A stretch of DNA of 38,994 nt from Planctomycetota bacterium (GCA_027622795.1 JAQBZA010000001.1:1-38994), one strand, 5' to 3'; shown: positions 5,627 to 17,638, counted from the stretch's first letter. Made by a program: numbers and translations. The notes: generated by a model not told the origin, from the sequence alone.

Positions 5627-6805
5627 TCACAAGAACGGCGTGGGCAGCAACACCGCGTGATGATCAAAGAGAATCCGCGTACCCAATGCCGCTACCATTG
5701 GCGCAAGAAACAGGATTGCAAGGTAAGCCGTCAGGGCAGCCCAACAGCCAAAGCTCACGATAACTCGGGTAGCGAGTGAGGCCTGGTCGGGCCGTGCCAT
5801 CGCTCGTGAGACAGCCCAGCCAACCGCCAATCGCCCTGGCAGGATGAGGAGCACGAACAGCGGCGTCAACAACCAGACTGCATCCCGTGGCGGTACGACG
5901 ATCTTGAGTACGTACAGTGGCACCGTGAGAATAAGAAGAAGAAGAAGTGCCATGAGCATTGCAAACGGTGCACGACGAAACCATTCCCGCACCAAAGCCA
6001 CGTCGATGAAAGCGGTGATGCGACCCGTAGCTGCGTAATGAGCTTGCAGGAACGGCACCCACATCAATGCCAGGGCAAGCAGGATGCCGCCACACAAGGA
6101 GACAAGCGGCGCAATGGGGCGATCAGAAATCCGTGGCATCGCAAAGAGCAGCGTGGGCACAGCCACCCATGCCATCCCCCCAAGAAACCCACCAACACCA
6201 AGTCGAAATGTCTTCCCGGGAGCGAGTACGTCAGACAGCCGACCTACGGCGGCCGCGCTCGCACTCCAAAGAGTTCCGGCCCGCACGGCTCTCACGACGC
6301 GACGGATATTGTGAATCGGACGGATAAACGCCAGTGGACTCGGCCCCGCTGCGAGGGCGAATAGTAAATGCACGGCCACACCGGCGGCGACGATTGCCCG
6401 CGTACGTTCCCATGCAATTGCCGTTGTTGAACCCGGATCAACGAGTGCGGCATCAGCAGCAGCGAAAGCGACGAGCCGCACGACGAGGAGCCACGCCCAA
6501 ATCCCGATTGCAGCGGCCCCCAACCGCGGTACGACTCGCAGCCACGGCAGGCCGTCGTGCAGCCGACCTGATCGGGCAACACGGCCCTCCGCATCGAGCA
6601 TCCAGCCCAGTGCGAGGAGATTGAGCACCGGTACGGCTGCAAGTAACGCCACGAGCATGATGAGCGTCAGACAGCCGGCCATACACGTCACCAGCCAGGC
6701 AACAGCCCGCACCGGGTGGCGCAGAGGATGCGGAGGCGGACCAAGCTCCCAGGGGGCCGTCTGTTCAGGAGTTCTGAGCAACTCAGCGCTAGCCATGACT
6801 GACAT
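5627..6805 (-). CDS. Polytopic membrane protein of unknown function
   Basis: Long ORF with about 8-10 hydrophobic segments. Start placed at ATG 6805 (MSVMASAELL...), because the 68-codon upstream extension of the listed ORF overlaps the divergent DUF1549 gene and is Arg/Pro-rich. ATG 6796 is an alternative start. Confidence 0.55.
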   Translation of the reverse strand: MSVMASAELLRTPEQTAPWELGPPPHPLRHPVRAVAWLVTCMAGCLTLIMLVALLAAVPVLNLLALGWMLDAEGRVARSGRLHDGLPWLRVVPRLGAAAIGIWAWLLVVRLVAFAAADAALVDPGSTTAIAWERTRAIVAAGVAVHLLFALAAGPSPLAFIRPIHNIRRVVRAVRAGTLWSASAAAVGRLSDVLAPGKTFRLGVGGFLGGMAWVAVPTLLFAMPRISDRPIAPLVSLCGGILLALALMWVPFLQAHYAATGRITAFIDVALVREWFRRAPFAMLMALLLLLILTVPLYVLKIVVPPRDAVWLLTPLFVLLILPGRLAVGWAVSRAMARPDQASLATRVIVSFGCWAALTAYLAILFLAPMVAALGTRILFDHHAVLLPTPFL

Positions 6806-6879
6806 CGTAATAGAGAATGGGGTGGATGTGGTTCGAAGACTGGCTACCGTTGTCCAGTCCCTTTGCCGGTTGTGTTGTG

Positions 6880-8544
6880 ATGCCGCAATCATTTCGTGAT
6901 TTACTGCCGCTGATTTGGATCGTGGCCGTGGTCGGAGCAGTGGTCGGATCCGTGGTGGCTGCTTCCCGATCGACCCTGCCGTCGCACCCCTGGGAAGTTG
7001 AGCCACCAAGCCAGGTCACCCGTGAACTGGCTGCCCGAATCGACGCCGTCATCAACGTGCAGATTTCAGCCGCCGGCCTTGAGCCGGCGGCTCTGGCCGA
7101 AGATGTCCTGGTGCTGCGGCGTATGTGGCTCGCGCTCGCAGGCACGGTCCCCAGCGTTGAGGAGCTTCGTCGCTTCGAGGCTGATTCACGGCCCGATCGA
7201 CTCGAACGGTGGCTCGCCGGAATTCTCGCCGACCGCCGTTCGGCAGACCATCTCGCCGGCCTCCTCGCCAGTGCCCTGACCGGCAACGACGGTGGGCCAG
7301 CATTCGTGTTTCGTCGCGATCGCTTCACATCATGGCTCGCAGATGCCCTGCACGCTGGTTGGTCATTCAAGGGGATTGTTGCAGAGATGGTGGCCAGCAC
7401 CGGGCTTTGGACCGGCACCCCGGCAGTCAACTTTGTGACCCAAGCAGCTAGCGCCGGCCAAGTTGATGAGAATACGCTCGCCGGCCGCGTGGCGCGATGT
7501 TTTCTCGGGATTCAGTTCGATTGCGCCCAGTGCCATGACCATCCATTCGCACCGTGGACGCAAACACAGTTTGAGGGGCTTGCCGCTTGCTTTGCGACAG
7601 TGCGTATTTCACCGCTGGGCGTGCGCGACTCCGGTCCGGCAGTTCTTCGGATCGAGACGCCCATGGCTTCCGCAGGAGCGATGCCTCCACTCACGACCGA
7701 TCCTGACCTCAAAAAGCCGTTCATCGCTGGCCGCCGAGCTGTCCCACAGGTTCCCTTCGGCCAACCCTGGTTTACCGGCTCGGGATCTTCCCGCGCGAAG
7801 CTCGCAACATGGATCACACACGACGAAAATCGGCGTTTCGGGCGCGCTGTCGCCAACCGCTGCTGGGCCATCGCGTTCGGCCGCCCATGGCATGAGCCGA
7901 TTGATGACGTACCCGATCCCTCCGTGGAGCCAGGCGAAAGTGATCTGCTGGACATTCTTGGCTGTGACTTCTGCGCCGGGACTGGCGACTTGCGGCAGAC
8001 GCTGGCAGCGATTTGCTCGACCGCGGCCTTCCGGCGAGCCTCGGCTCATCCTGGGCTCAATGATCCATCTCGGGCAGCGGCCGTAACCACCTCATGGGCG
8101 GCCTTTCCGCTCTCACAACTTCCACCTGCAACCATGATCTCCGCGATGATTCAGGCCACTTCACTCCGCACGATCGACCCCGAATCACCCCTTTTTGTGC
8201 GAACGATTCGGTTTCTGCGCGCAGTTGATTTCATGCGGGAGTACGGCCGTAGTCACCCACATGAGCCAGCCACAATTCCTCAGGCACTCGTGCGGCTGAA
8301 CGGCCGACTGGCCCGGGAACTCTGTGAAGCCAATGTGTTTTCAGGGCCGGGGCGGGTCGCTGGGCTTTCCCAATCCAATACATCAAGGCTCGACACGGCG
8401 TTTCTTGCCTGCCTCAGTCGTCACCCCGATGCAAGTGAGCAGCGGATGCTCATACCGCTTCTCGAAGCTGGCACACCTGCACGAGGTATTGAGGATCTAT
8501 ATTGGACGCTGTTCAACTCAGCGGAGTTCTGCTGGAACCATTGA
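6880..8544 (+). CDS. DUF1549 (PSCyt2) / DUF1553 (PSD1) domain protein
   Basis: DUF1549 core FLGIQFDCAQCHDHPFAPWTQTQFEGLAACF and the typical DUF1553 C-terminus IEDLYWTLFNSAEFCWNH. Start chosen at ATG 6880 (MPQSFRDLLPLIWIVAVVGAVVG, an N-terminal anchor). ATG 6817 is also possible. Confidence 0.8.
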   Translation: MPQSFRDLLPLIWIVAVVGAVVGSVVAASRSTLPSHPWEVEPPSQVTRELAARIDAVINVQISAAGLEPAALAEDVLVLRRMWLALAGTVPSVEELRRFEADSRPDRLERWLAGILADRRSADHLAGLLASALTGNDGGPAFVFRRDRFTSWLADALHAGWSFKGIVAEMVASTGLWTGTPAVNFVTQAASAGQVDENTLAGRVARCFLGIQFDCAQCHDHPFAPWTQTQFEGLAACFATVRISPLGVRDSGPAVLRIETPMASAGAMPPLTTDPDLKKPFIAGRRAVPQVPFGQPWFTGSGSSRAKLATWITHDENRRFGRAVANRCWAIAFGRPWHEPIDDVPDPSVEPGESDLLDILGCDFCAGTGDLRQTLAAICSTAAFRRASAHPGLNDPSRAAAVTTSWAAFPLSQLPPATMISAMIQATSLRTIDPESPLFVRTIRFLRAVDFMREYGRSHPHEPATIPQALVRLNGRLARELCEANVFSGPGRVAGLSQSNTSRLDTAFLACLSRHPDASEQRMLIPLLEAGTPARGIEDLYWTLFNSAEFCWNH

Positions 8545-8557
8545 GCAGATCACTCTC

Positions 8558-9886
8558 ATGAAACGAATGCCCTTGGAGTCGGAAAATGTGATCCTGTGTA
8601 ACGCGTTGCCCGCTTCGGAGGAGCCGCGCGTGATTATCTCGGGGTCGCGACGCCATGTGCTGGCCGCTGCAGGCGGGCTTGGGGTGTCGTTCATGCTCCC
8701 CTCCCTGCGCGCACGAGCAGCGGCCCGGCGGGGCCGTGAGCGGCCGCGGTCACTCATCACGCTCTGGCTGGCGGGAGGCCCGAGCCAACTGGAGACGTGG
8801 GATCCACATCCGGGAACAGCCATTGGCGGCCCCACGCGGGCCATTTCCACGACCATTCCAGGCCTTCAGATCGCCAGCGACTACCCACGAGTGGCGGAGC
8901 GGCTGGGGAGATTCTCCGTCATTCGTTCCCTTGTCTCACGTGAGGGAGACCATCAACGCGGCACTCACGCCGTCCGTACTGGCTACCGCCCCGATCCCGT
9001 GCTTTCCTATCCGGCCCTCGGCGCTCTGCTGGCCCATCAATCGCCTCCAACTGGGCTCGATATTCCAGCCTATGTGGCATTGGGGGCCGACGCCTTTCCC
9101 GGCCGTGGCGGCTACCTTGGCGGCCGCTTCGATCCCTATCGCGTGTTCGTACCCGGATTCGCTGGCCAGAATCTGGTGCCACACACCAACGGTCCACGGC
9201 AGGATCGGCGACTGACGGCCCTGCGTGGTCTCGATATGCACTTCGCAGCGAGCCGTGGCGTCCCCGTTGCCGCCACGCTCCACGACCATACGCTCGAAGC
9301 GGCGCTTGCAATGATGTCGAGCGAACAACTCGCGGCCTTCTCGGTTGTGGCAGAACCGGCCGCGGTACGGTCAGCCTACGGGGAGACTTCGTTTGGTCGT
9401 GGCTGCCTTGTCGCGCGGCGGCTCGTCGAAGCTGGAGTGCGGAGCATTGATGTCACGCTGCAGGGCTTCGATACCCATGCGGCAAACTTCACAAGCCATG
9501 CGGCGCAGGCGACGATTCTCGATGGCGCTTTGGCGGCACTCATCGACGATCTCGCCGATCGTGATCTCCTCGAATCTACCGTCGTGCTTGTGACGGGAGA
9601 GTTTGGTCGTACACCGCAGATCAACCCGCTCGAGGGCCGTGACCACTGGCCACATGGATTTTCCTGTTTGCTTGCCGGGGGGGGAATCGCGTCGGGGCGC
9701 GTCATTGGAGCCACCGATCCCGAGGGAAGGTTGCGGGAGCCTGAGCATCCCGTAACCGTTGCGGACCTGTCGGCTACGGTGCTCGCAGCCCTGGGCATCG
9801 ATTGGCAACGCGAACTGATGACCCCACTCGGCAGACCGGTGAAGCTCGCGGATGGCACACCGGTCGTGGGATTGATTTCCGGATGA
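8558..9886 (+). CDS. DUF1501 domain protein (sulfatase-fold) with Tat-type signal
   Basis: SRRHVLAAAGGLGVSFMLPSLRARA twin-arginine-like signal. LWLAGGPSQLETWDPHPG, SLVSREGDHQRGTH and TGEFGRTPQINPLEGRDHWPHGFSCLLAGGG are hallmark DUF1501 blocks. Start at ATG 8558, 13 nt after the upstream stop codon. Confidence 0.85.
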   Translation: MKRMPLESENVILCNALPASEEPRVIISGSRRHVLAAAGGLGVSFMLPSLRARAAARRGRERPRSLITLWLAGGPSQLETWDPHPGTAIGGPTRAISTTIPGLQIASDYPRVAERLGRFSVIRSLVSREGDHQRGTHAVRTGYRPDPVLSYPALGALLAHQSPPTGLDIPAYVALGADAFPGRGGYLGGRFDPYRVFVPGFAGQNLVPHTNGPRQDRRLTALRGLDMHFAASRGVPVAATLHDHTLEAALAMMSSEQLAAFSVVAEPAAVRSAYGETSFGRGCLVARRLVEAGVRSIDVTLQGFDTHAANFTSHAAQATILDGALAALIDDLADRDLLESTVVLVTGEFGRTPQINPLEGRDHWPHGFSCLLAGGGIASGRVIGATDPEGRLREPEHPVTVADLSATVLAALGIDWQRELMTPLGRPVKLADGTPVVGLISG

Positions 9887-10161
9887 CGCAAGACTTTTTC
9901 GGGTGATTGCGGCCAGCGGCAGGGGCGTATTGTTGCGGTCGAGGTTCCTCGGGAGGCCTACTCGGATGGATCCGCCGCGGCATTGATGCGGATGGTAAAT
10001 CACTGGCTTGCGGTAGCCAATGAGATGCGGTCAACGAGCGGTGGAATGTTTTTGCCGCATTCCCGCGGCTCATTGCCCACCAGCCGCCGGTAGCGGTAGA
10101 GTGCCGAATCTGGGACGGAGGTGTTCCCGCCGAATGTGCAAATCGCTGGGAGGGATCGGAA

Positions 10162-11121
10162 ATGCCTGATGACATGGCAACGAACGTGTCACCTGCCACT
10201 CGTGCGGCGAATGCGGCACTGATGATGAGTGCCGCACTTCGCTTGGGCGTGGGCCTCCCGTCGGGTGTGGAACAACAGTCGGCCGAGGCACTCGATGCGG
10301 TCGCGTCATCACTCCGTCAAGGTGATGGACATGCCCCGGCTTCCACGATTGATGCTCTCGTTACCACGGTGCCTGCACCCGCTCGCGGTATCATGCGGCT
10401 TGCCCTCGCGGTAGCCGACGTACGACGACTGCTTACAGTACTCGACCAGATCGTGGCCAGCGATCGGTGGAATCGCTGGGAAACGAGACTTGCCTTGGCC
10501 TACCCGACAGGCGTCTGCCTCGCGGCATTCGTTGGGATAGCTCTCGTTGCGCTGGTCAACGAGCCGTCCTTGAACGCACTTGCGGAGTCAACCGTGTTGC
10601 CCCAGGTGCCGTCGGCACCCGTGCCCCACCCGGTCTGGGAGGCCGTGTCTGTGCCGGCAGCGACGTCGGCGGGAGGGGTACTTCTCGGTGTTCTCGTCTG
10701 GTGGAGCCGAAGCGGTATCCGTGCCAAAGCGGCGCGCCAACGGGCTGCGGTTGCCTGCGAAGTCGAGGCAATCTTTACGGAAGTTGAGCTCGATCATCCT
10801 CGGCGAAAAAAGATTTTGGCTGATCTTGCGGCTGGAGAAGGCTCGGCGCTCGCCGGTCCGTTACAGCCACCGTTGGCTCTGGCCGTCGCGGCCTTTCCGT
10901 TGGCAGAACGGTCAGCAGCGCTCCGTGAAGTAGCAACTCTCTACCGCCACACAGCCGAAGCCGACAGAACGGCCAGACGGGCGCTGCTGCCGGCAGGAGC
11001 CAGTGTTGTGGCGGGGCTCGCCGTGCTGCTCTTCGGCATCGCGCTGTTTCTGCCGTTGGTGCAGTTCTTCAGTCGGATCGCAGCCATGCCGGCGGCCCCG
11101 CCATGGAGTCCTGGCCTATGA
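10162..11121 (+). CDS. GspF/PilC-like platform protein paralogue A (most degenerate of three)
   Basis: A GGGAGGG Shine-Dalgarno-like element sits 7 nt before the ATG. It shares with the next two ORFs the segment 'ALAYP + TM helix + x-P' (RLALAYPTGVCLAAFVGIALVALVNEPSLNAL). It also shares a terminal TM helix (LLFGIALFLPLVQFFSRI), which is the layout of T2SS-F family proteins. Confidence 0.45.
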   Translation: MPDDMATNVSPATRAANAALMMSAALRLGVGLPSGVEQQSAEALDAVASSLRQGDGHAPASTIDALVTTVPAPARGIMRLALAVADVRRLLTVLDQIVASDRWNRWETRLALAYPTGVCLAAFVGIALVALVNEPSLNALAESTVLPQVPSAPVPHPVWEAVSVPAATSAGGVLLGVLVWWSRSGIRAKAARQRAAVACEVEAIFTEVELDHPRRKKILADLAAGEGSALAGPLQPPLALAVAAFPLAERSAALREVATLYRHTAEADRTARRALLPAGASVVAGLAVLLFGIALFLPLVQFFSRIAAMPAAPPWSPGL

Positions 11122-12011
11122 CATCGTTACTATCGTCATATGTGCTGCAAGCCATCAGTCGACATCACAGCGCGGCGCGGCTCGTCAGGGCACTTGCTGA
11201 GGACATGCCCGCCGCCCGGGGACGACCTTGGCAAGCGATCGCAGATGCACTCGATTCAAACGATGTCGATATGGCAAAACGGATCGACGCTCCAGATGCT
11301 CAGTATTGGCTTCCACTGATCGCAAGCCGCCGGAATGACCCGCAGATGCTGTCGCGTCTGGTGCGGGCGGCTGGCCAACGGATGCAACAAGCCTCTGGAG
11401 GCTGGGCAGCACTGGCTTATCCGTTGGTCATTGTCGGATTTTCCATCGTAGTGATGATCATTCTCTCGGTACTCGTCATGCCGGTTTTTTCCGACATGTT
11501 CACTGACTTTGGCCTCGAACTCCCGGCGGCCACAAGGGCCGTGATTGGTTTCATGGGGTTTCTGGCCACGGGCTGGGGCCCCCTGCTCGTGGCGCTGGGC
11601 GTGATTGCAGTGGGCCGCTGGATCCTTATTACCCGATCACCCCGCGGCCCCGGCATAGCTGAAGGGTTCACGCGCAACCTGGCAATGCTTGCCGAAGCCG
11701 GCCTCCCTCAGCAAGACGCCATCGCGCTTGCGGCTACCGCAGTCGGAGTGCCTCCGGCAGCCGCAGCATCCGGGAACCGTCACAGACCGATTGAGGTCGT
11801 TGTCGACATGGCACTTCATCATGAAGCAAAAGCATCCGCAATTCTGCTGTCAGCGATCGCCGACTGTCATGCGGATCGCGCCCGCAGCAGTCTGTGGTCC
11901 ACCCAGTGGCTGATCGGTCCGGTAGCCATTGGCGTGGTCGGACTTCTTGTGGGCCTGATCATGATTGCACTGTTTATGCCACTTGTCAGACTTGTTTCCG
12001 GACTCTCGTGA
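11118..12011 (+). CDS. GspF/PilC-like (T2SS-F family) platform protein paralogue B
   Basis: AALAYPLVIVGFSIVVMIILSVLVMPVFSDMFTDFGLELPAATRAV matches the canonical GspF/PilC block (YP-TM-vvP.F..mF...g..LP..T). Second domain is FTRNLAMLAEAGLPQQDAI and the terminal TM is LIMIALFMPLVRLVSGLS. Start placed at ATG 11118, which forms an ATGA overlap with the upstream stop codon. ATG 11103 is an alternative start. Confidence 0.75.
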   Translation: MTSLLSSYVLQAISRHHSAARLVRALAEDMPAARGRPWQAIADALDSNDVDMAKRIDAPDAQYWLPLIASRRNDPQMLSRLVRAAGQRMQQASGGWAALAYPLVIVGFSIVVMIILSVLVMPVFSDMFTDFGLELPAATRAVIGFMGFLATGWGPLLVALGVIAVGRWILITRSPRGPGIAEGFTRNLAMLAEAGLPQQDAIALAATAVGVPPAAAASGNRHRPIEVVVDMALHHEAKASAILLSAIADCHADRARSSLWSTQWLIGPVAIGVVGLLVGLIMIALFMPLVRLVSGLS

Positions 12012-12031
12012 TACCCCCGCCGGGTCGACGT

Positions 12032-13048
12032 ATGCAGCTGTTCTCAATCGTCACAAATGCATGGAATGCTTTGCCAAGCCGTGCCTGCAGCGCGACCGAA
12101 TCGATGTCGATTTTGCGAATTCTGGCCGCCTGCGCCCAGGCTCAGACCGCCATGCCGCCGATGCTTGCCGCTTGGGCCCGCTGCCAGCGTGCCGCACAGG
12201 CCAACCGCATCGACGCCATCGTCGACGAACTCACCCGGGGTGTTCCCTTGGATGCTGCACTCGCTGCCTCTGGCAGCGCGATGCGGGATGATCACCTCAT
12301 CGCCGCTCGTTTTGCCGCCAAAACCAACCTACTGCCACAGGTAATACCAGCAGTCGTGAATGTTACCAGCGGGCTATCCTGGCGGTACCGCTCAGCACTT
12401 GGATACCTCGCGGTGGTTCTCGTCATATTTCTGGGTGTTTCAGGCTTTCTGTCACTGCGAGTCATGCCTCTCTGGGCCCAGATTCTTCATGACTTTGATA
12501 TGGATGTCCCGTACAGCGCGATCGTTGCTCAAGCGATCTCACCGTACATCGTCGCCACCAACGCAGGCCTACCGATCCTCGTGCTAGGAGGATTTCTGCT
12601 CATAGCCTCACGTCGGCTAAGGAGATGGCTTGCCAGACCCTTTCAGGCTGGTGAGAGACGGGCCGCAGCCCTCGATCTCTTGGGGATCGCCCTCAGCGCC
12701 GGGCGGCCGCTCCCGGAAGTGGCTCACCTCCTGGCGGCATCTCAGCAGAGCGATCAGAGGTTGACGCAACGCCTGGAGGCCATCGCCACAGATGCCAGCG
12801 GCATGGCCCGCAGTGGGTTGCTACGACCCGTTGAACTCGAGCAATGGGAGCGGCTTTTGACTGTCGCCGACCAAGGCTGGCTTTTGCGGACGGCCGCTGC
12901 GCGACGACGGGAGCGAACACGACAGCGTTGGACACTCGCAGCCGAGTTGATCGTGCCGGTGGGTGTGGCCCTGATGGGCTCTCTCGTTTTGATCGAAGCA
13001 TTCGCGGTGCTTGGGCCGCTTCGCTACCTTGTGCAGACGCTTTCATGA
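12032..13048 (+). CDS. GspF/PilC-like platform protein paralogue C
   Basis: IDAIVDELTRGVPLDAALAASG (F-domain-like), RSALGYLAVVLVIFLGVSGFLSLRVMPLWAQILHDFDMDVPYSAIVA (same block as paralogue B), DLLGIALSAGRPLPEVAHLL (second domain), terminal TM ALMGSLVLIEAFAVLGPLRYLV. Start at ATG 12032, 20 nt after the upstream stop codon. Confidence 0.6.
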   Translation: MQLFSIVTNAWNALPSRACSATESMSILRILAACAQAQTAMPPMLAAWARCQRAAQANRIDAIVDELTRGVPLDAALAASGSAMRDDHLIAARFAAKTNLLPQVIPAVVNVTSGLSWRYRSALGYLAVVLVIFLGVSGFLSLRVMPLWAQILHDFDMDVPYSAIVAQAISPYIVATNAGLPILVLGGFLLIASRRLRRWLARPFQAGERRAAALDLLGIALSAGRPLPEVAHLLAASQQSDQRLTQRLEAIATDASGMARSGLLRPVELEQWERLLTVADQGWLLRTAAARRRERTRQRWTLAAELIVPVGVALMGSLVLIEAFAVLGPLRYLVQTLS

Positions 13049-13482
13049 ACGTCCTGTGGCACAATCCTGTACGGCGTGGTATTTCGAGTATTGAAATGCT
13101 CGTCGCCTTCTCATTAGTACTTACCGCGATGGCTTCAACGGTGCCGCTGTTCGTTCGGCATCAGCGGTTGCTGGCCGAGTCCCGCAGGGAGCGATTGGCG
13201 ATCGAGGAACTGGCCAATCAGGCCCAGCGGCTTCTCTCGCTCGAGCCGGACGAGGTGGATCGGTTTCTGGAGACACTGACACCGTCTGAGATTGCCCGCC
13301 GCCACCTCAACGATGCGGTCATCCACTTCGAAACGAGGGCCTCCGAACTCGGTGAGCGGGTCGTGCTTTCACTTCGCTGGAAGGACACAGGACGACGAAA
13401 TGCCCCCCTTCTGCTGGCCGTCTGGCTACCACCCCGGGGCGCCGTCAATGCTGCCTTTTCCCCGCGGGAGTCGTCCCCCTGA
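13045..13482 (+). CDS. Small pseudopilin-like protein with prepilin-type N-terminus
   Basis: N-terminus MNVLWHNPVRRG|ISSIEMLVAFSLVLTAMAS: a basic leader, then Gly, Glu at +5, then a hydrophobic helix (class III signal layout). The ATG forms an ATGA overlap with the upstream stop codon. Confidence 0.6.
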   Translation: MNVLWHNPVRRGISSIEMLVAFSLVLTAMASTVPLFVRHQRLLAESRRERLAIEELANQAQRLLSLEPDEVDRFLETLTPSEIARRHLNDAVIHFETRASELGERVVLSLRWKDTGRRNAPLLLAVWLPPRGAVNAAFSPRESSP

Positions 13483-14093
13483 TGGCGCACACGCCTTTCT
13501 CACCGCCACCCGCCGCCAGAATGCCTTACGCCGGCATGAGGCGTGGCGCTTCGCTCGCCGAGTTGCTGGCTGTGATGGCATCGCTCGGGGTGGTGCTGAG
13601 CGTAGCCGCGGGATTGGTGCATACCGCCATGCGGCTGCAATCGACCTCCCGACAAGACCTCGAGCGCGACCGCACAGCAATGCGTCTTGCACGTCAGTTT
13701 CGACATGATGTGCGACAGGCAGAAGCCGTGACCACCGTATCCGTAGTAACCGGAGACGACGATGGAGTCACTTCTCCGGAAACACTCGTCGAGTTTTCCC
13801 TCACCGCAAAGATGAACGTCAGGTACCAAGCAAGTCTTCAGCAACTCACGCGACAGGCCACAGCAAACGGGCGAACGACACGGGAAGACTACTTTTTTGC
13901 GTCGCCGATGCAGTGGAACGTGACGCCAACGGATCGATGCATCGTCCTCAACGGCCGTGCCTTGACCCGTAACCCAGCGCGAGGCCACCCGCTTCGGCCA
14001 CTCGACGTCGAGATTGTAGCCGTGACCACTGGTGCACAGATCAAGGAAACCAAATCACCGCCCAGCAACCGCGCCACCAAGAGGGCACCATGA
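13482..14093 (+). CDS. Pseudopilin-like protein with prepilin-type N-terminus
   Basis: MRRG|ASLAELLAVMASLGVVLSVAAGLV with Glu at +5. The start overlaps the upstream stop codon by 1 nt (TGATG). Confidence 0.6.
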   Translation: MAHTPFSPPPAARMPYAGMRRGASLAELLAVMASLGVVLSVAAGLVHTAMRLQSTSRQDLERDRTAMRLARQFRHDVRQAEAVTTVSVVTGDDDGVTSPETLVEFSLTAKMNVRYQASLQQLTRQATANGRTTREDYFFASPMQWNVTPTDRCIVLNGRALTRNPARGHPLRPLDVEIVAVTTGAQIKETKSPPSNRATKRAP

Positions 14094-14578
14094 TGGCTAG
14101 GCAGAAGCACATGGTCGCTCGTCAGGGCATCGCGATCGTCATCGTGATCGGCTGTCTGGCAGCATTTTCACTGGTTGCACTTGCAATGCTCCGTGGAGCC
14201 GTGCTCACACGGCATGTATTTCGAAGTGAACACCATCTGCGACAGGCAGAGCTGCTGCTCGACGCGGCTGCCACGCGCACGGCGGCACGACTCGCAGCAG
14301 ATGCATCCGCCGCCCCCAACTCCCTCGACGAAAATTTGGTGATCCCTGCTGACGCAATCACTGGCAGACACGATGCGCGCATCATGATCGATGTCTCACC
14401 CGGAGATGGAGAGGAAAATCCATCGGCATCAGGTTCATCACGCTGGCGCGTGCGGATTGTCGTCTATTATCCGATCGACGGCCCGCATGCCGTCCGCCGA
14501 ACACGCGAAGTGTTGCTCCCTGCGCCCAATCCCAAACGACAAGCCGCCCGACACCATTTTCAGGAGACTGCGTCATGA
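14090..14578 (+). CDS. GspK/PilX-like minor pseudopilin candidate (no Glu at +5)
   Basis: MMARQKHMVARQG|IAIVIVIGCLAAFSLVALAML: a basic leader, Gly, then a hydrophobic helix with Ile at +5, as in Glu-less minor pseudopilins. ATGA overlap with the upstream stop codon. Confidence 0.5.
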   Translation: MMARQKHMVARQGIAIVIVIGCLAAFSLVALAMLRGAVLTRHVFRSEHHLRQAELLLDAAATRTAARLAADASAAPNSLDENLVIPADAITGRHDARIMIDVSPGDGEENPSASGSSRWRVRIVVYYPIDGPHAVRRTREVLLPAPNPKRQAARHHFQETAS

Positions 14579-15453
14579 CATTCCACGGCCGCATCAGCAA
14601 CCCGTTCAATCGCCACCAGGGTTTCACTCTTGTTGAATTGCTCGTGGTGATCGCCATCATCGGGGTTCTCGTAGGCCTCCTCCTGCCGGCTGTCCAGGCG
14701 GCTCGAGAGGCCGCTCGTCGCTGTAGTTGTGCGAACAATGTGACGCAGATCGGGCTTGCCCTCCATAACCACGAGTTTCACCTGGAAAGCTTCCCCGCAG
14801 GTGTGACCGATCCGGACGGCCCTGTTCGGAACATTGAGGAGGGAATGCATGTGAGTTGGATCGTCCGAATTCTTCCCTACCTGGAACAAACGGCACTCAG
14901 CCGTAACTTCGATGAGGCAGAGGGAGCGTATGGTGCGGTCAATCGTCCTGTCCGCGAGGCATGGATTTCATCTCTCATCTGTCCTTCATCACCTGAACCG
15001 GGACGCCCCGACTCAGAGATCGGTGGCATCGGTCACACAACATATGCCGGCTGCCACCATGAGGCTGAGGCTCCGATCGATGAAAATAACCATGGGGTTC
15101 TTTTTCTCAACAGCAGCATCACATTCAGCGATATCGAAGATGGCAGTTCGAACACCCTGTTGATTGGGGAGCACTTTCTCGGGGTTCGTGACCTTGGTTG
15201 GGTCTCTGGCACCCGTTCAACGCTTCGCAACACGTCACAGATCGAAGAGCCGCAGCAAAACCGTACTCCCGAGCAACCAGCACCCGACCCGCTCTTCGTG
15301 GGCGGCTTCGGCAGCTATCATCCCGGAATGTCGATGATTGGCATGGCTGACGGCTCGACTCGAGCGCTTGCCAACACCATGTCGCCCGCCATACTTCGCC
15401 AACTTGGTAACCGCAGTGACGGTGAGATTCCCAAGCAGAACACGCGGGAGTAG
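14575..15453 (+). CDS. DUF1559 'H-X9-DG' protein with canonical prepilin-type cleavage/methylation N-terminus
   Basis: RHQG|FTLVELLVVIAIIGVLVGLLLPAVQAAREAARRCSCANNVTQIGLALHNHE is the stereotyped planctomycete DUF1559 N-terminus. The C-terminal SYHPGMSMIGMADGS fits H-X9-DG. ATGA overlap with the upstream stop codon. Confidence 0.9.
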   Translation: MTFHGRISNPFNRHQGFTLVELLVVIAIIGVLVGLLLPAVQAAREAARRCSCANNVTQIGLALHNHEFHLESFPAGVTDPDGPVRNIEEGMHVSWIVRILPYLEQTALSRNFDEAEGAYGAVNRPVREAWISSLICPSSPEPGRPDSEIGGIGHTTYAGCHHEAEAPIDENNHGVLFLNSSITFSDIEDGSSNTLLIGEHFLGVRDLGWVSGTRSTLRNTSQIEEPQQNRTPEQPAPDPLFVGGFGSYHPGMSMIGMADGSTRALANTMSPAILRQLGNRSDGEIPKQNTRE

Positions 15454-15457
15454 ATCC

Positions 15458-17638
15458 ATGCATGGCAACACAGCCTCTTTGCGGACGCTTCTATCCCTGA
15501 TGATTTTTTGCTCTCCAGTGCTCCTGCTCTATGTCGCTGCTGGAGCAGAGTCTGGAGACACTGTGTCTCTTCCGATCTCCGGGGACGACGACTGGTCGCA
15601 TCACGATTTCTGGCAGACAACCAATGGCAAGCCTGTTTCGGATGGCTGGCGGTTTGCGGATGGTGCGGTGTCTCTTGTCACTCCCGGCAAGGGCGGAAGT
15701 ATTGTTTCACGCCCCCTGCCCCCCCACTTTGAGCTCAGTTGGACATGGCGGATCGAAAAAGGCGTGAACAGCGGCTTGAAATACCGTGTCCGCCGCTTCG
15801 GAAACAGTCTTTTTGGGAATCACTATCTCGGCCTCGAGTATCAGATCATTGACAGCCGTCCAGAGGACACCTCCGTAGGGTCGACCGCCGCGATTTATGG
15901 CTTGGTGGCCCCGATCGCCGAGAAGACACTCCACCCACCCGGCGAGTGGAACACGGCTCGCATCGTTGCGATCGGAGACCATGTTGAGCACTTTCTCAAC
16001 GGCAAACTGGTCGCTGCCGCCAACACGACAGGGCCGGCCTGGGAGACCGCCATCGCCCTGAGCAAATTCTCCGGCAGCACAGGCTTTGGTCAGCCACGGG
16101 AAGGCGACCGCATCATGCTCACGGATCATGGGGGCCGGGTCACATACAAGGACTTTCATTTCGTACCTCACCCGTCTCCGTCCCCCGAGGTCGCGCATCT
16201 CCCGGGACCGTTTCTCGCAAATGCCACCCGCAACGGCTGGGCAACCAGCGACAGCGTCGTGATTTGGACGCGAACGACGAAACATCGTGAAATGCTGGTC
16301 GATGGCCTGCCATTCGTTTCTGTACCTCCCACCGAGGCCGCGCGGCTGGCCAAGCTTGACGACGCCCCGAGACTGCTTGCGTTACAACTTCCACCCGGAG
16401 CCACTCTTGAAGACATGTTCGGAGCCTGCCCTGGGGCGAGCGGGCGGGTTCGGCTGTCCTACTACCCTGACCAGCAGCGGCACAAAATACGGCATGCTCC
16501 CTGGAAGTTAACCTCTGGTGAAAATGATTTCACCGCCCAGTGGCATCTGGAAGGGCTCACCCCCAACACCCGTTATGTGACGGTCATCGAGGCGCAGACT
16601 GCTGACGGCAAGCCCTCATCGGTGCTGCTTGGTGGCTTTCGCACACCTCCGAACTCACACCAGGCGGAGCCGCTGCGATTCTGCATGACAACGTGTCATG
16701 ATTTTCTTCGCCGTGATGACGGCCTCAATGGACATACCATCTACGGAGCCCTGGAGAAGCTCGCCCCCGACTTCATCGTCCATGCTGGTGACATCGAGTA
16801 TTACGACCAGCCTGATCCCTGGGCCCTCACCACACAGCTGATGCGGTTCAAGTGGGCGCGGCTCTTTGCTCTCCCTGCGAACCGCCACTTTTACAATCAC
16901 ACGACGTCCTATTTCATCAAGGACGACCACGACACCCTAGCTGACGATTGCTGGCCTGGGCAGACGTATGGTGCGGTTTCGTTTGAAGAAGGCGCGAAAC
17001 TGTTCAACGAGGAACAATTCCCCTCGCGACATCCTCGTTACGCCAACATCCGGTGGGGACGTGACATTGAGATCTGGCTCCTCGAGGGCCGAGACCACCG
17101 CAGCCCCAACACGGCGCTCGACGGCCCGGAAAAGTCGATCCTCGGTATACCGCAACGGACCTGGCTTTTTGAAACCCTCGCAGCATCGAAAGCCGACTTC
17201 AAGCTTGTCTTCAGTCCAACCCCAATCGTGGGGCCCGATCGATCGGGAAAGCGCGACAACCATGCCAACACGGCCTTCTCCTGGGAGGGCGAAGAACTTC
17301 GCGAACGGCTCTCACAGATTCCTGGGGTGATCGTTTTCTGTGGTGATCGCCACTGGCAATACGCCTCCGTCGACGAGACCGGTCTCTGGGAATTCGGATG
17401 CGGCCCTGGCAGTGAGAAGCATCAGCTAGGCTGGAAAGCGGGGGATGCGAGGCCAAAGCATCGGTTTCTCCGCGTCGCCGGTGGCTTTCTCTCCGGTGAA
17501 CTCGTCCCGTCCATCGGCAAGAACAAGCCCTCATTGACCATTCGCCATCTCTCTGTCACCGGTGAGGAAGCGAGTCGGTTTGTCTTTCCTCAGCCGTCTT
17601 CAAAAGCCAAGAGATCGCGTTCACAAGCAGCCGATTGA
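15458..17638 (+). CDS. Exported fusion protein: DUF1080 (3-keto-disaccharide hydrolase-like) + PhoD-like metallophosphatase
   Basis: Sec-type signal LLSLMIFCSPVLLLYVAAGA. DUF1080 blocks are NSGLKYRV, GLEYQIIDS, AAIYGLVAP, GEWNTARIVAIGDHVEHFLNGKLV. PhoD-like blocks are FIVHAGDIEYYD, YFIKDDHDTLADD, VIVFCGDRHWQYAS. Start at ATG 15458, 4 nt after the pseudopilin stop codon. Confidence 0.8.
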   Translation: MHGNTASLRTLLSLMIFCSPVLLLYVAAGAESGDTVSLPISGDDDWSHHDFWQTTNGKPVSDGWRFADGAVSLVTPGKGGSIVSRPLPPHFELSWTWRIEKGVNSGLKYRVRRFGNSLFGNHYLGLEYQIIDSRPEDTSVGSTAAIYGLVAPIAEKTLHPPGEWNTARIVAIGDHVEHFLNGKLVAAANTTGPAWETAIALSKFSGSTGFGQPREGDRIMLTDHGGRVTYKDFHFVPHPSPSPEVAHLPGPFLANATRNGWATSDSVVIWTRTTKHREMLVDGLPFVSVPPTEAARLAKLDDAPRLLALQLPPGATLEDMFGACPGASGRVRLSYYPDQQRHKIRHAPWKLTSGENDFTAQWHLEGLTPNTRYVTVIEAQTADGKPSSVLLGGFRTPPNSHQAEPLRFCMTTCHDFLRRDDGLNGHTIYGALEKLAPDFIVHAGDIEYYDQPDPWALTTQLMRFKWARLFALPANRHFYNHTTSYFIKDDHDTLADDCWPGQTYGAVSFEEGAKLFNEEQFPSRHPRYANIRWGRDIEIWLLEGRDHRSPNTALDGPEKSILGIPQRTWLFETLAASKADFKLVFSPTPIVGPDRSGKRDNHANTAFSWEGEELRERLSQIPGVIVFCGDRHWQYASVDETGLWEFGCGPGSEKHQLGWKAGDARPKHRFLRVAGGFLSGELVPSIGKNKPSLTIRHLSVTGEEASRFVFPQPSSKAKRSRSQAAD

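Follow-up and report, generated by a model that had tools for sequence, protein, structure and literature searches.

The window analyzed here is a 38,994-nucleotide stretch of DNA from a Planctomycetota bacterium (GCA_027622795.1, JAQBZA010000001.1:1-38994). Inspection of its open reading frames (ORFs) shows seven genes on the same strand, A to G, that form one cassette at positions 10162–15453 (Table 1). At the head of the cassette are three genes, A, B, and C, whose products belong to the family of GspF and PilC, the inner-membrane platform protein of type II secretion systems (T2SSs) and type IV pili. These are followed by three pilin-like genes and by one gene for a GspG-like pilin of the DUF1559 family. 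The three ORFs lie where the original prediction had placed a tandem set of GspF/PilC-like paralogs, and the peptides that it quoted are present in them.

The cassette genes are tightly packed. The start of B overlaps the stop of A by 4 nucleotides (ATGA), the start of D overlaps the stop of C to the same extent, and overlaps of 4 or 1 nucleotides occur at five of the six junctions. The B–C junction would follow suit if C begins at GTG 12008, which would overlap the B stop by 4 nucleotides as GTGA. Because of these overlaps, the cassette genes are probably translationally coupled, which we read as matched expression. The longest ORF for B starts at 11103 and encodes 302 amino acids (aa), but the ATG at 11118 was chosen because the B orthologs are 297 aa long. 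A scan of positions 9700–15700 for sigma-70 promoters and terminators yielded nothing beyond shuffled expectation to mark the ends of an operon.

In the public gene calls for this contig, A, B, and C have 315, 246, and 314 aa, respectively, which is below the ortholog-supported lengths of 319, 297, and 338–346 aa; above all for B and C, the start seems to have been placed too far downstream. The public annotation lists B and C as “PulF” and A as “hypothetical protein,” a label that the results presented here correct.

Table 1. Positions of the cassette genes and of other features referred to in the text
Feature	Sequence	Position	Strand	Product	Description
Gene A	Window	10162..11121	+	319 aa	Position-1 paralog; highly divergent GspF/PilC-family platform protein
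Gene B	Window	11118..12011	+	297 aa	Position-2 paralog; least divergent of A, B, and C
Gene C	Window	12032..13048	+	338 aa from ATG, or 346 aa from GTG 12008	Position-3 paralog
Gene D	Window	13045..13482	+	145 aa	Pilin-like, N-terminal motif
Gene E	Window	13482..14093	+	203 aa	Pilin-like, N-terminal motif
Gene F	Window	14090..14578	+	162 aa	Pilin-like, without Glu5
Gene G	Window	14575..15453	+	292 aa	DUF1559 protein, GspG-like pilin
Hydrophobic ORF	Window	5627–7009	-	460 aa	Many hydrophobic segments
Indel relative to L007	Window	6403–10058			DUF1549/DUF1553 gene and DUF1501 gene
Secretin-like gene	L019	17791–18957			Secretin_N domain
Tandem long T2SSF genes	L022	84–2634			Tandem pair opening a short contig
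Gene B in pieces	L012	10663–11847			Three overlapping ORF pieces
Gene C in pieces	L002	3933–4920			Two pieces

Homology of A, B, and C to GspF and PilC

The original prediction credited the three proteins with a common core. In direct comparisons, this core is barely visible: BLASTP aligned A and B over only 22 aa in the third transmembrane segment (TMS3; E = 0.002), aligned B and C over 79 aa comprising TMS1 and the following loop (E = 4e-4), and returned nothing significant for A and C. Family profiles were therefore needed. For each protein, a family was built from orthologs at 48 to 62% identity (alignments A1, A2, and A3), and the families were compared with hhalign. The B and C families matched with a probability of 97% (E = 8e-11, 260 columns), the A and B families with 85% (E = 6e-6, 259 columns), and the A and C families with 34% (E = 4e-4, 204 columns), in alignments that were long and collinear. 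Hence, the common core holds at the profile level, and only there does the similarity exceed chance.

Searches with Pfam models pointed in the same direction. The T2SSF model (PF00482, gathering cutoff 25.2 bits) matched B with 35.4 bits and C with 32.3 bits, both above the cutoff and in two stretches, with a full domain at residues 213–327 in C. For A, the score of 17.6 bits is under the cutoff and comes from a single stretch (residues 251–298) that covers only the last 48 profile positions, in line with the earlier description of A as strongly degenerate and with its standing as the most divergent of the three. Positional orthologs of A do pass the cutoff, namely P0052 (67.2 bits, in two stretches) and P0109 (52.4 bits). 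The NCBIfam models for GspF, PilC, and HofC matched B with E values from 1e-13 to 3e-15 and C with about 3e-5, and gave no match for A. On the GspF equivalog model TIGR02120, which has a cutoff of 424 bits, B and C reached only 56.3 and 23.3 bits, and scores on the PilC models were far below their cutoffs of 700 bits. B is thus the least divergent of the three, as had been proposed, but its description as near-canonical goes too far, given this score and the absence of the N-terminal domain discussed later. Judged by these profile scores, none of the three proteins is a GspF or PilC ortholog in the strict sense.

In a profile search against the PDB, the best match of all three families was PilC from M. 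xanthus (3jc8), with E values of 0.0019, 4.5e-17, and 4.6e-7 for A, B, and C, respectively. For the A family, PilC was the sole match with E ≤ 10, aligned in two collinear stretches, one per domain end. When the A profile was run against 1.84 billion representative proteins, 190 were retrieved at E ≤ 1e-3, and T2SSF was detected (E ≤ 0.001) in 101 of the 121 full-length proteins that were aligned. Together with the scores of the orthologs, this places A in the T2SSF superfamily by transitive, profile-level evidence.

One could argue that A is a nonhomologous protein that resembles its neighbors through hydrophobic-helix composition, or else a decaying remnant. The 22-aa BLASTP match, the Pfam score under the cutoff, and the silence of NCBIfam would fit this idea, as would the outcome of a Foldseek search with a model of A (described later), which found no counterpart in the PDB. 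We read the Foldseek result as uninformative: the query consists of helices throughout, and the solved relatives that turned up in the sequence searches comprise a low-resolution model and a short domain. The exclusive match to PilC, the T2SSF domains among the relatives of A, and the position-1 orthologs that pass Pfam with two domains all contradict the idea, and so do the approximately 90 columns that are invariant among 10 orthologs at about 50% identity. Decay is at odds with a ratio of nonsynonymous to synonymous substitution rates (dN/dS) of about 0.2 and with the lack of any frame disruption in A, and a purely compositional resemblance is at odds with TMS2, which has the same hydrophobic bias and yet is not conserved. 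We consider this alternative effectively refuted; A is a true T2SSF relative, as originally proposed, and A, B, and C are anciently separated paralogs of the GspF/PilC platform protein.

Conservation, phylogeny, and selection

The trio is not confined to this genome. Thirteen further loci contain it intact and with its order unchanged; four of these belong to genomes named Pirellulales or Planctomycetaceae, and four more cassette loci are truncated. With hidden Markov models of the families, the order A–B–C was recovered in 12 of 12 loci (L001–L012). The cassette occurs in metagenome contigs with differing flanking genes (L001–L006) and in six species-representative genomes, of which five are labeled Pirellulales, Planctomycetaceae, or Planctomycetota and the sixth, 96% identical to the window, bears the label “Ca. 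Kuenenia sp.” Among the more distant relatives, five proteins (P0038, P0041, P0052, P0109, and P0143) are each encoded by the first gene of a trio that is followed, contig permitting, by three small genes and then a DUF1559 pilin gene; for P0063, the contig stops after the second gene. An A-like protein is the product of the first cassette gene in each context sampled with enough contig (L013, L014, L016, L018, and L019), and L017 carries a two-gene remnant that is compatible with the cassette. The A, B, and C genes were never seen apart, and the cassette occurs in Pirellulales, the planctomycete order of its named relatives.

In two of the loci, one gene is split while A and the other genes are intact: gene B of L012 lies in three overlapping ORF pieces and gene C of L002 in two (Table 1). 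Both look like frameshifts, which may be assembly errors or real disruptions.

A neighbor-joining tree was calculated from eight trios and six longer T2SSF proteins. The proteins cluster by gene position, with bootstrap values of 90 for position 1, 85 for position 2 plus P0159, and 100 for position 3. This grouping entails that the triplication is ancient, predating the divergence of the cassettes, and that the gene order has been frozen since. Therefore, the progressive, serial divergence envisaged in the original prediction gives way to three position-specific clades of orthologs. P0159, which the tree grouped with position 2, proved to be the product of the middle gene of another cassette, in a metagenome-assembled genome (MAG) of Aureliella, and the L020 cassette was predicted from the tree and afterwards confirmed.

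Some cassettes are less reduced than that of the window. In L016, L018, and L020, the first, middle, and third proteins of the trio have approximately 345 to 374, 395 to 401, and 352 to 366 aa, respectively, and those of L016 and L018 score 52 to 73 bits on T2SSF. In these three loci, the N-terminal domain T2SSF_N (PF28597) is retained solely by the middle gene; in the Pfam scan of A, B, and C, this domain was absent. Its loss accounts for most of the missing length, and this is mainly why the three proteins are, as noted before, shorter than a typical GspF. At the start of the short contig L022, two long T2SSF genes stand in tandem (412 aa with T2SSF_N, then 432 aa) and are followed by a 98-aa gene. 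The pair probably corresponds to genes two and three of a cassette that is reduced even less, which suggests that the trio arrangement reaches proteins of near-canonical length. By contrast, an actinobacterial PilC match in L021 belongs to a classical pilus cluster that has a single PilC alongside PilB, a pilin, and PilM/O.

Selection was assessed by comparing the window with L007, where all seven cassette genes are intact. The dN/dS values were 0.31 for A, 0.59 for B, 0.29 for C, 0.25 to 0.31 for D to F, and 0.10 for G. Among the wider orthologs (21–28 pairs), the medians for A, B, and C were 0.22, 0.17, and 0.21, respectively; these are approximate values, many pairs being near saturation of dS. 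All three genes are under purifying selection, and A shows no sign of decay.

Membrane topology and motifs at the putative trimer core

Kyte–Doolittle windows predict three transmembrane segments in each of the three proteins, at equivalent positions; in A, they span approximately residues 114–132, 161–179, and 282–300. An AlphaFold2 model of A, calculated on a deep alignment, is confident and all-helical (predicted local distance difference test score [pLDDT] 88.6, predicted template modeling score 0.80). In this model, two helix bundles run into long transmembrane helices (residues 87–144 and 247–308), and there is a further transmembrane helix at residues 157–180. The layout of all three proteins thus comprises three TMSs and two cytoplasmic domains.

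The best-studied point of reference here is PulF, for which a homotrimer was modeled and validated by cross-linking (PMC10790770). In that model, the TMS1 and TMS3 helices make up a six-helix bundle at the center, with TMS2 and the N-domain, which is dispensable, at its periphery, and the constriction is made up of Y168(-P) and E370–P371 (PMC10790770). The TMS1 motif is preserved as Y114–P115 in A and Y101–P102 in B; in C, it reads Y125–L126, the Tyr being kept and the Pro lost. Across the eight trios, Tyr-Pro is present in 7/8 proteins at position 1 and 8/8 at position 2, and at position 3 the Tyr is present and the Pro lost in 8/8. The TMS3 motif has changed more. A has LP, with P277 kept and the Glu lost; B has G267–P268 in place of E370–P371; and C has VP, with E305 four residues upstream of P309. 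The TMS3 Pro is kept nearly everywhere. The Glu before it is lost in all position-1 proteins, position 2 mostly has Gly-Pro (Glu-Pro being kept in L018 only), and the upstream Glu is a trait of the position-3 subclade to which the window belongs.

The identity between the paralogs is unevenly distributed. It amounts to 0.21 to 0.33 in TMS1 and TMS3, compared with 0.10 to 0.18 in TMS2, the loop, and the cytoplasmic domains, the last of which are approximately 15 to 18% identical to one another. TMS1 and TMS3 are also the best-conserved regions among orthologs. Since TMS2 is equally hydrophobic and yet unconserved, composition alone does not explain the similarity of TMS1 and TMS3. We have very high confidence in the picture formed jointly by homology, conservation, gene order, selection, topology, and the position-specific motif changes.

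A proposed heterotrimeric platform and its alternatives

For the assembly of these proteins, we lean, with modest confidence, toward a 1:1:1 heterotrimer of A, B, and C that would stand in for the GspF homotrimer and work with an unlinked ATPase. One copy of each protein would assemble into a pseudo-threefold complex replacing a homotrimer of the PulF type. TMS1 and TMS3 of the three chains would form the central six-helix bundle, with TMS2 and the divergent cytoplasmic domains sitting outside it. The six nonidentical cytoplasmic domains would dock on a hexameric ATPase of the GspE/PilB type encoded elsewhere, and the complex would load the pilins of the cassette into a short filament, with D, E, and F forming the priming complex and G serving as the fiber subunit. 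We infer the 1:1:1 stoichiometry, the ATPase acting in trans, and the filament function. The hetero-oligomeric assembly suggested in the original prediction thereby acquires a specific form, which we find plausible.

Several observations fit a heterotrimer. The number of genes matches the stoichiometry proposed for the platform, the genes are never apart and their reading frames overlap, the best-conserved parts of the proteins are the segments of the trimer core, and motif losses that are specific to one position would be awkward in homotrimers.

Another reading, which we deem improbable but worth serious consideration, is that A, B, and C make three separate homo-oligomeric platforms, each serving its own subset of DUF1559-type pilins or its own ATPase. 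In the ATPase variants of this idea, to which we give equally little credence, the partners would be enzymes for extension and retraction, or several GspE/PilT paralogs of these genomes. Planctomycetes have dozens of DUF1559 paralogs (68 in P. limnophila, PMC10632474; 74 in R. baltica, PMC2754498), and an essential locus of P. limnophila has three ATPase genes beside one F gene. According to one report, paired PilB/PilC paralogs of haloarchaea represent separate systems with limited cross-complementation (PMC6491452). Cytoplasmic domains that are so dissimilar would also suit different partners. Against this reading, the three genes were never seen apart, have a constant order, and overlap, and the cassette brings only one set of pilins. 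Moreover, the core of a homotrimer would carry each position-specific loss threefold, for example that of the TMS1 Pro in position 3, and the cytoplasmic domains of A have degenerated past direct recognition by Pfam.

In T2SSs and type IV pili, a scaffold of GspL/GspM/GspC or PilM/N/O normally links the platform, the ATPase, and the periplasmic parts. No homolog of GspC/L/M or PilM/N/O was found in the cassette or its flanks, and one may ask whether only one of the three proteins, most likely B, is a working platform, with A and perhaps C re-used as an accessory scaffold in place of the missing one. B is always the most canonical protein and the only one to keep T2SSF_N in the less reduced cassettes, and A is the most divergent. 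Nevertheless, we judge this scenario to be quite unlikely: A and C keep the complete three-TMS topology and are best conserved in the oligomer core, neither has gained a new periplasmic or cytoplasmic domain, and all three proteins score well on T2SSF in the near-canonical cassettes.

The heterotrimer has to be weighed against several findings that do not favor it. No ATPase, secretin, prepilin peptidase, or GspC/L/M/PilMNO homolog is present among the ORFs of the window, and none was found within approximately 9 to 10 kb of the cassettes L001–L020 apart from a secretin-like gene in L019. Likewise, all frames of the window and of L001–L019 are devoid of a GspE-type Walker A box, and no T2SSE ATPase is present among the genes called in L020. 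An intact TMS3 Glu-Pro pair is present in none of the three proteins; the constriction Glu is missing in A and B and displaced in C, which would alter any real channel function. The Foldseek search with the model of A gave no PDB match that could confirm the fold. The GspF trimer itself derives from modeling and cross-linking and has no solved structure, and stoichiometries from 1 to 3 are still debated for Tad. Finally, three homo-oligomers that are all needed would equally predict the fixed co-occurrence of the genes. Since there is no ATPase near the cassettes, the partner ATPase must be encoded elsewhere in the genome.

On balance, we put the further-reaching proposal that A, B, and C form a natural obligate heterotrimer, that is, a pseudo-symmetric GspF/PilC rotor with its own gene for each position, at slightly less than an even chance. 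If this were true, comparative genomics alone would fix the platform stoichiometry at three, strict threefold symmetry would be unnecessary, and rotary versus gyratory models of ATPase-driven pilin insertion would be constrained. Each protomer, cytoplasmic domain, and channel residue would also be separately mutable.

The secretin-like gene of L019 is located on a 154-kb contig, approximately 3 kb beyond the downstream end of the cassette. Its product has 875 aa and runs off the locus. It is the only other part of a secretion machine near any cassette sampled.

Comparison with known systems

How many subunits the GspF/PilC platform has and how it works are open questions for all type IV filament machines (T2SSs, type IV pili, competence pili, Tad pili, and archaella). 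The long-standing assumption was a dimer; modeling and cross-linking now favor a trimer, and for Tad the number of units on each ATPase hexamer is still discussed, between one and three (PMC10790770; PMC11300603). A 2026 preprint describes F as “most plausibly a homotrimer,” and a study of Tad still considers one, two, or three heterodimers of CpaG/CpaH on each hexamer. That a lineage has retained exactly three platform genes, all different, constant in order, and under purifying selection, is independent evolutionary evidence on the platform number and would provide a naturally asymmetric complex suited to structural and genetic dissection. The interest for the type IV filament field is conditional on the heterotrimer being confirmed.

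With GspF/PulF, the trio shares T2SSF homology, three TMSs, two cytoplasmic helical domains, and, in A and B, the TMS1 Tyr-Pro. The trio genes also adjoin genes for GspG-like and minor-pseudopilin-like proteins, and their number equals the stoichiometry proposed for the PulF trimer. Unlike the T2SS, which has a single F gene, the cassette has three paralogous genes, whose products have no T2SSF_N and have lost or shifted the TMS3 Glu-Pro residue, and it is not linked to GspE, D, C, L, M, or O. The similarity to PilC of M. xanthus (3jc8/3jc9) consists of collinear profile alignments that cover the ends of both domains. That protein, however, is encoded by a single gene located by pilB, pilT, and pilMNOPQ, whereas the cassette has three genes and no linked ATPase, and A, B, and C are approximately 80 to 100 aa shorter at the N terminus.

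The nearest published idea concerns TadB/TadC (CpaG/CpaH), a platform that is likewise made from paralogs encoded side by side; it is thought to be a hetero-oligomer and has been modeled as three heterodimers on a hexameric ATPase. Each Tad protein has only one T2SSF domain, so two Tad genes make one GspF equivalent, and the modeled complex has six chains. Given the two T2SSF stretches of B and C and the three-TMS layout of all three proteins, three chains would suffice here. The cassette also differs in having three genes rather than two, with no TadA/CpaF or Flp pilin nearby.

In the open-access literature searched, we found no prior description of tandem or multiple GspF/PilC genes in planctomycetes. 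The essential locus Plim_0401–0410 of Planctopirus limnophila (PMC10632474) comes from the same phylum and is also an operon of the type IV filament type, with conserved secretion genes followed by planctomycete-specific small proteins. It has three ATPase genes and one F gene, in contrast to the three F genes and no ATPase found here. The locus was considered as an instance of the same cassette and rejected, since its ATPase genes encode GspE, a PilT-like protein, and again GspE, and are accompanied by a single F gene and six genes for hypothetical proteins.

The downstream genes D to G

The products of D, E, and G have prepilin-like N termini of the form G|xxxxE. In D, the N terminus (RRG|ISSIE) is followed by a hydrophobic helix and resembles a class III signal; this feature is kept in most of the cassettes compared. 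NCBIfam gave a weak match of D to the N terminus of ComGE (E = 7e-4), and a profile search of the PDB returned nothing significant. E starts with RRG|ASLAE and a hydrophobic helix, a motif that is kept in orthologs, and its family profile weakly matches the N termini of solved pilins (geopilin, PilA, and TcpA; E = 0.002–0.03). F has RQG|IAIVI and is without Glu5. A missing Glu5 is a GspK-like trait, and F indeed weakly matches the N terminus of GspK (E = 0.0018); no match was found for F in the PDB profile search. As only E was matched in the PDB, and weakly, the pilin-like label of D and F comes from their N-terminal motifs. Overall, these profiles weakly suggest that D, E, and F may be pilins.

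G has a canonical prepilin N terminus (G|FTLVE). Pfam assigns it to SBP_bac_10/DUF1559 (E = 1.5e-49) and detects N_methyl (E = 1e-8); in NCBIfam, its N terminus matches GspG (E = 4.5e-9) and its C terminus HX9DG. In the comparison with L007, G is the most constrained gene of the cassette. Through G, the cassette ties a defined assembly module to the enigmatic and hugely expanded DUF1559 pilin-like family of planctomycetes.

Genomic surroundings of the cassette

The window has the appearance of planctomycete DNA, with a G+C content of approximately 0.61 and, besides the DUF1559 gene, DUF1549/DUF1553, DUF1501, and sulfatase genes. The gene 3′ of G encodes a product with 3-keto-disaccharide-hydrolase-like and PhoD-like domains. 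Its first ATG, at 15458, is only 4 nucleotides past the G stop, and the gene may therefore be co-transcribed with the cassette in this genome; it does not neighbor the cassette in more distant relatives. In those relatives, the flanks consist of cyclase and esterase genes upstream and GntR and ABC genes downstream. Given that the flanks differ between loci, the cassette behaves as a movable module.

The window and L007 (96.8% nucleotide identity) are collinear except for approximately 3.6 kb that are absent from L007. This segment, with one DUF1549/DUF1553 gene and one DUF1501 gene, is directly upstream of A, so that the indel is at the border of the cassette (Table 1). L007 (JAYQOK010000011.1) is a MAG contig titled “Candidatus Kuenenia sp.,” an anammox planctomycete. 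The other named relatives with the cassette are Pirellulales, Lacipirellulaceae, or Aureliella, and the title of L007 may reflect misbinning or mislabeling.

The 460-aa ORF on the minus strand, for which no Pfam or NCBIfam match was found, overlaps the 5′ end of the opposite-strand DUF1549 gene and is partly conserved in L007.

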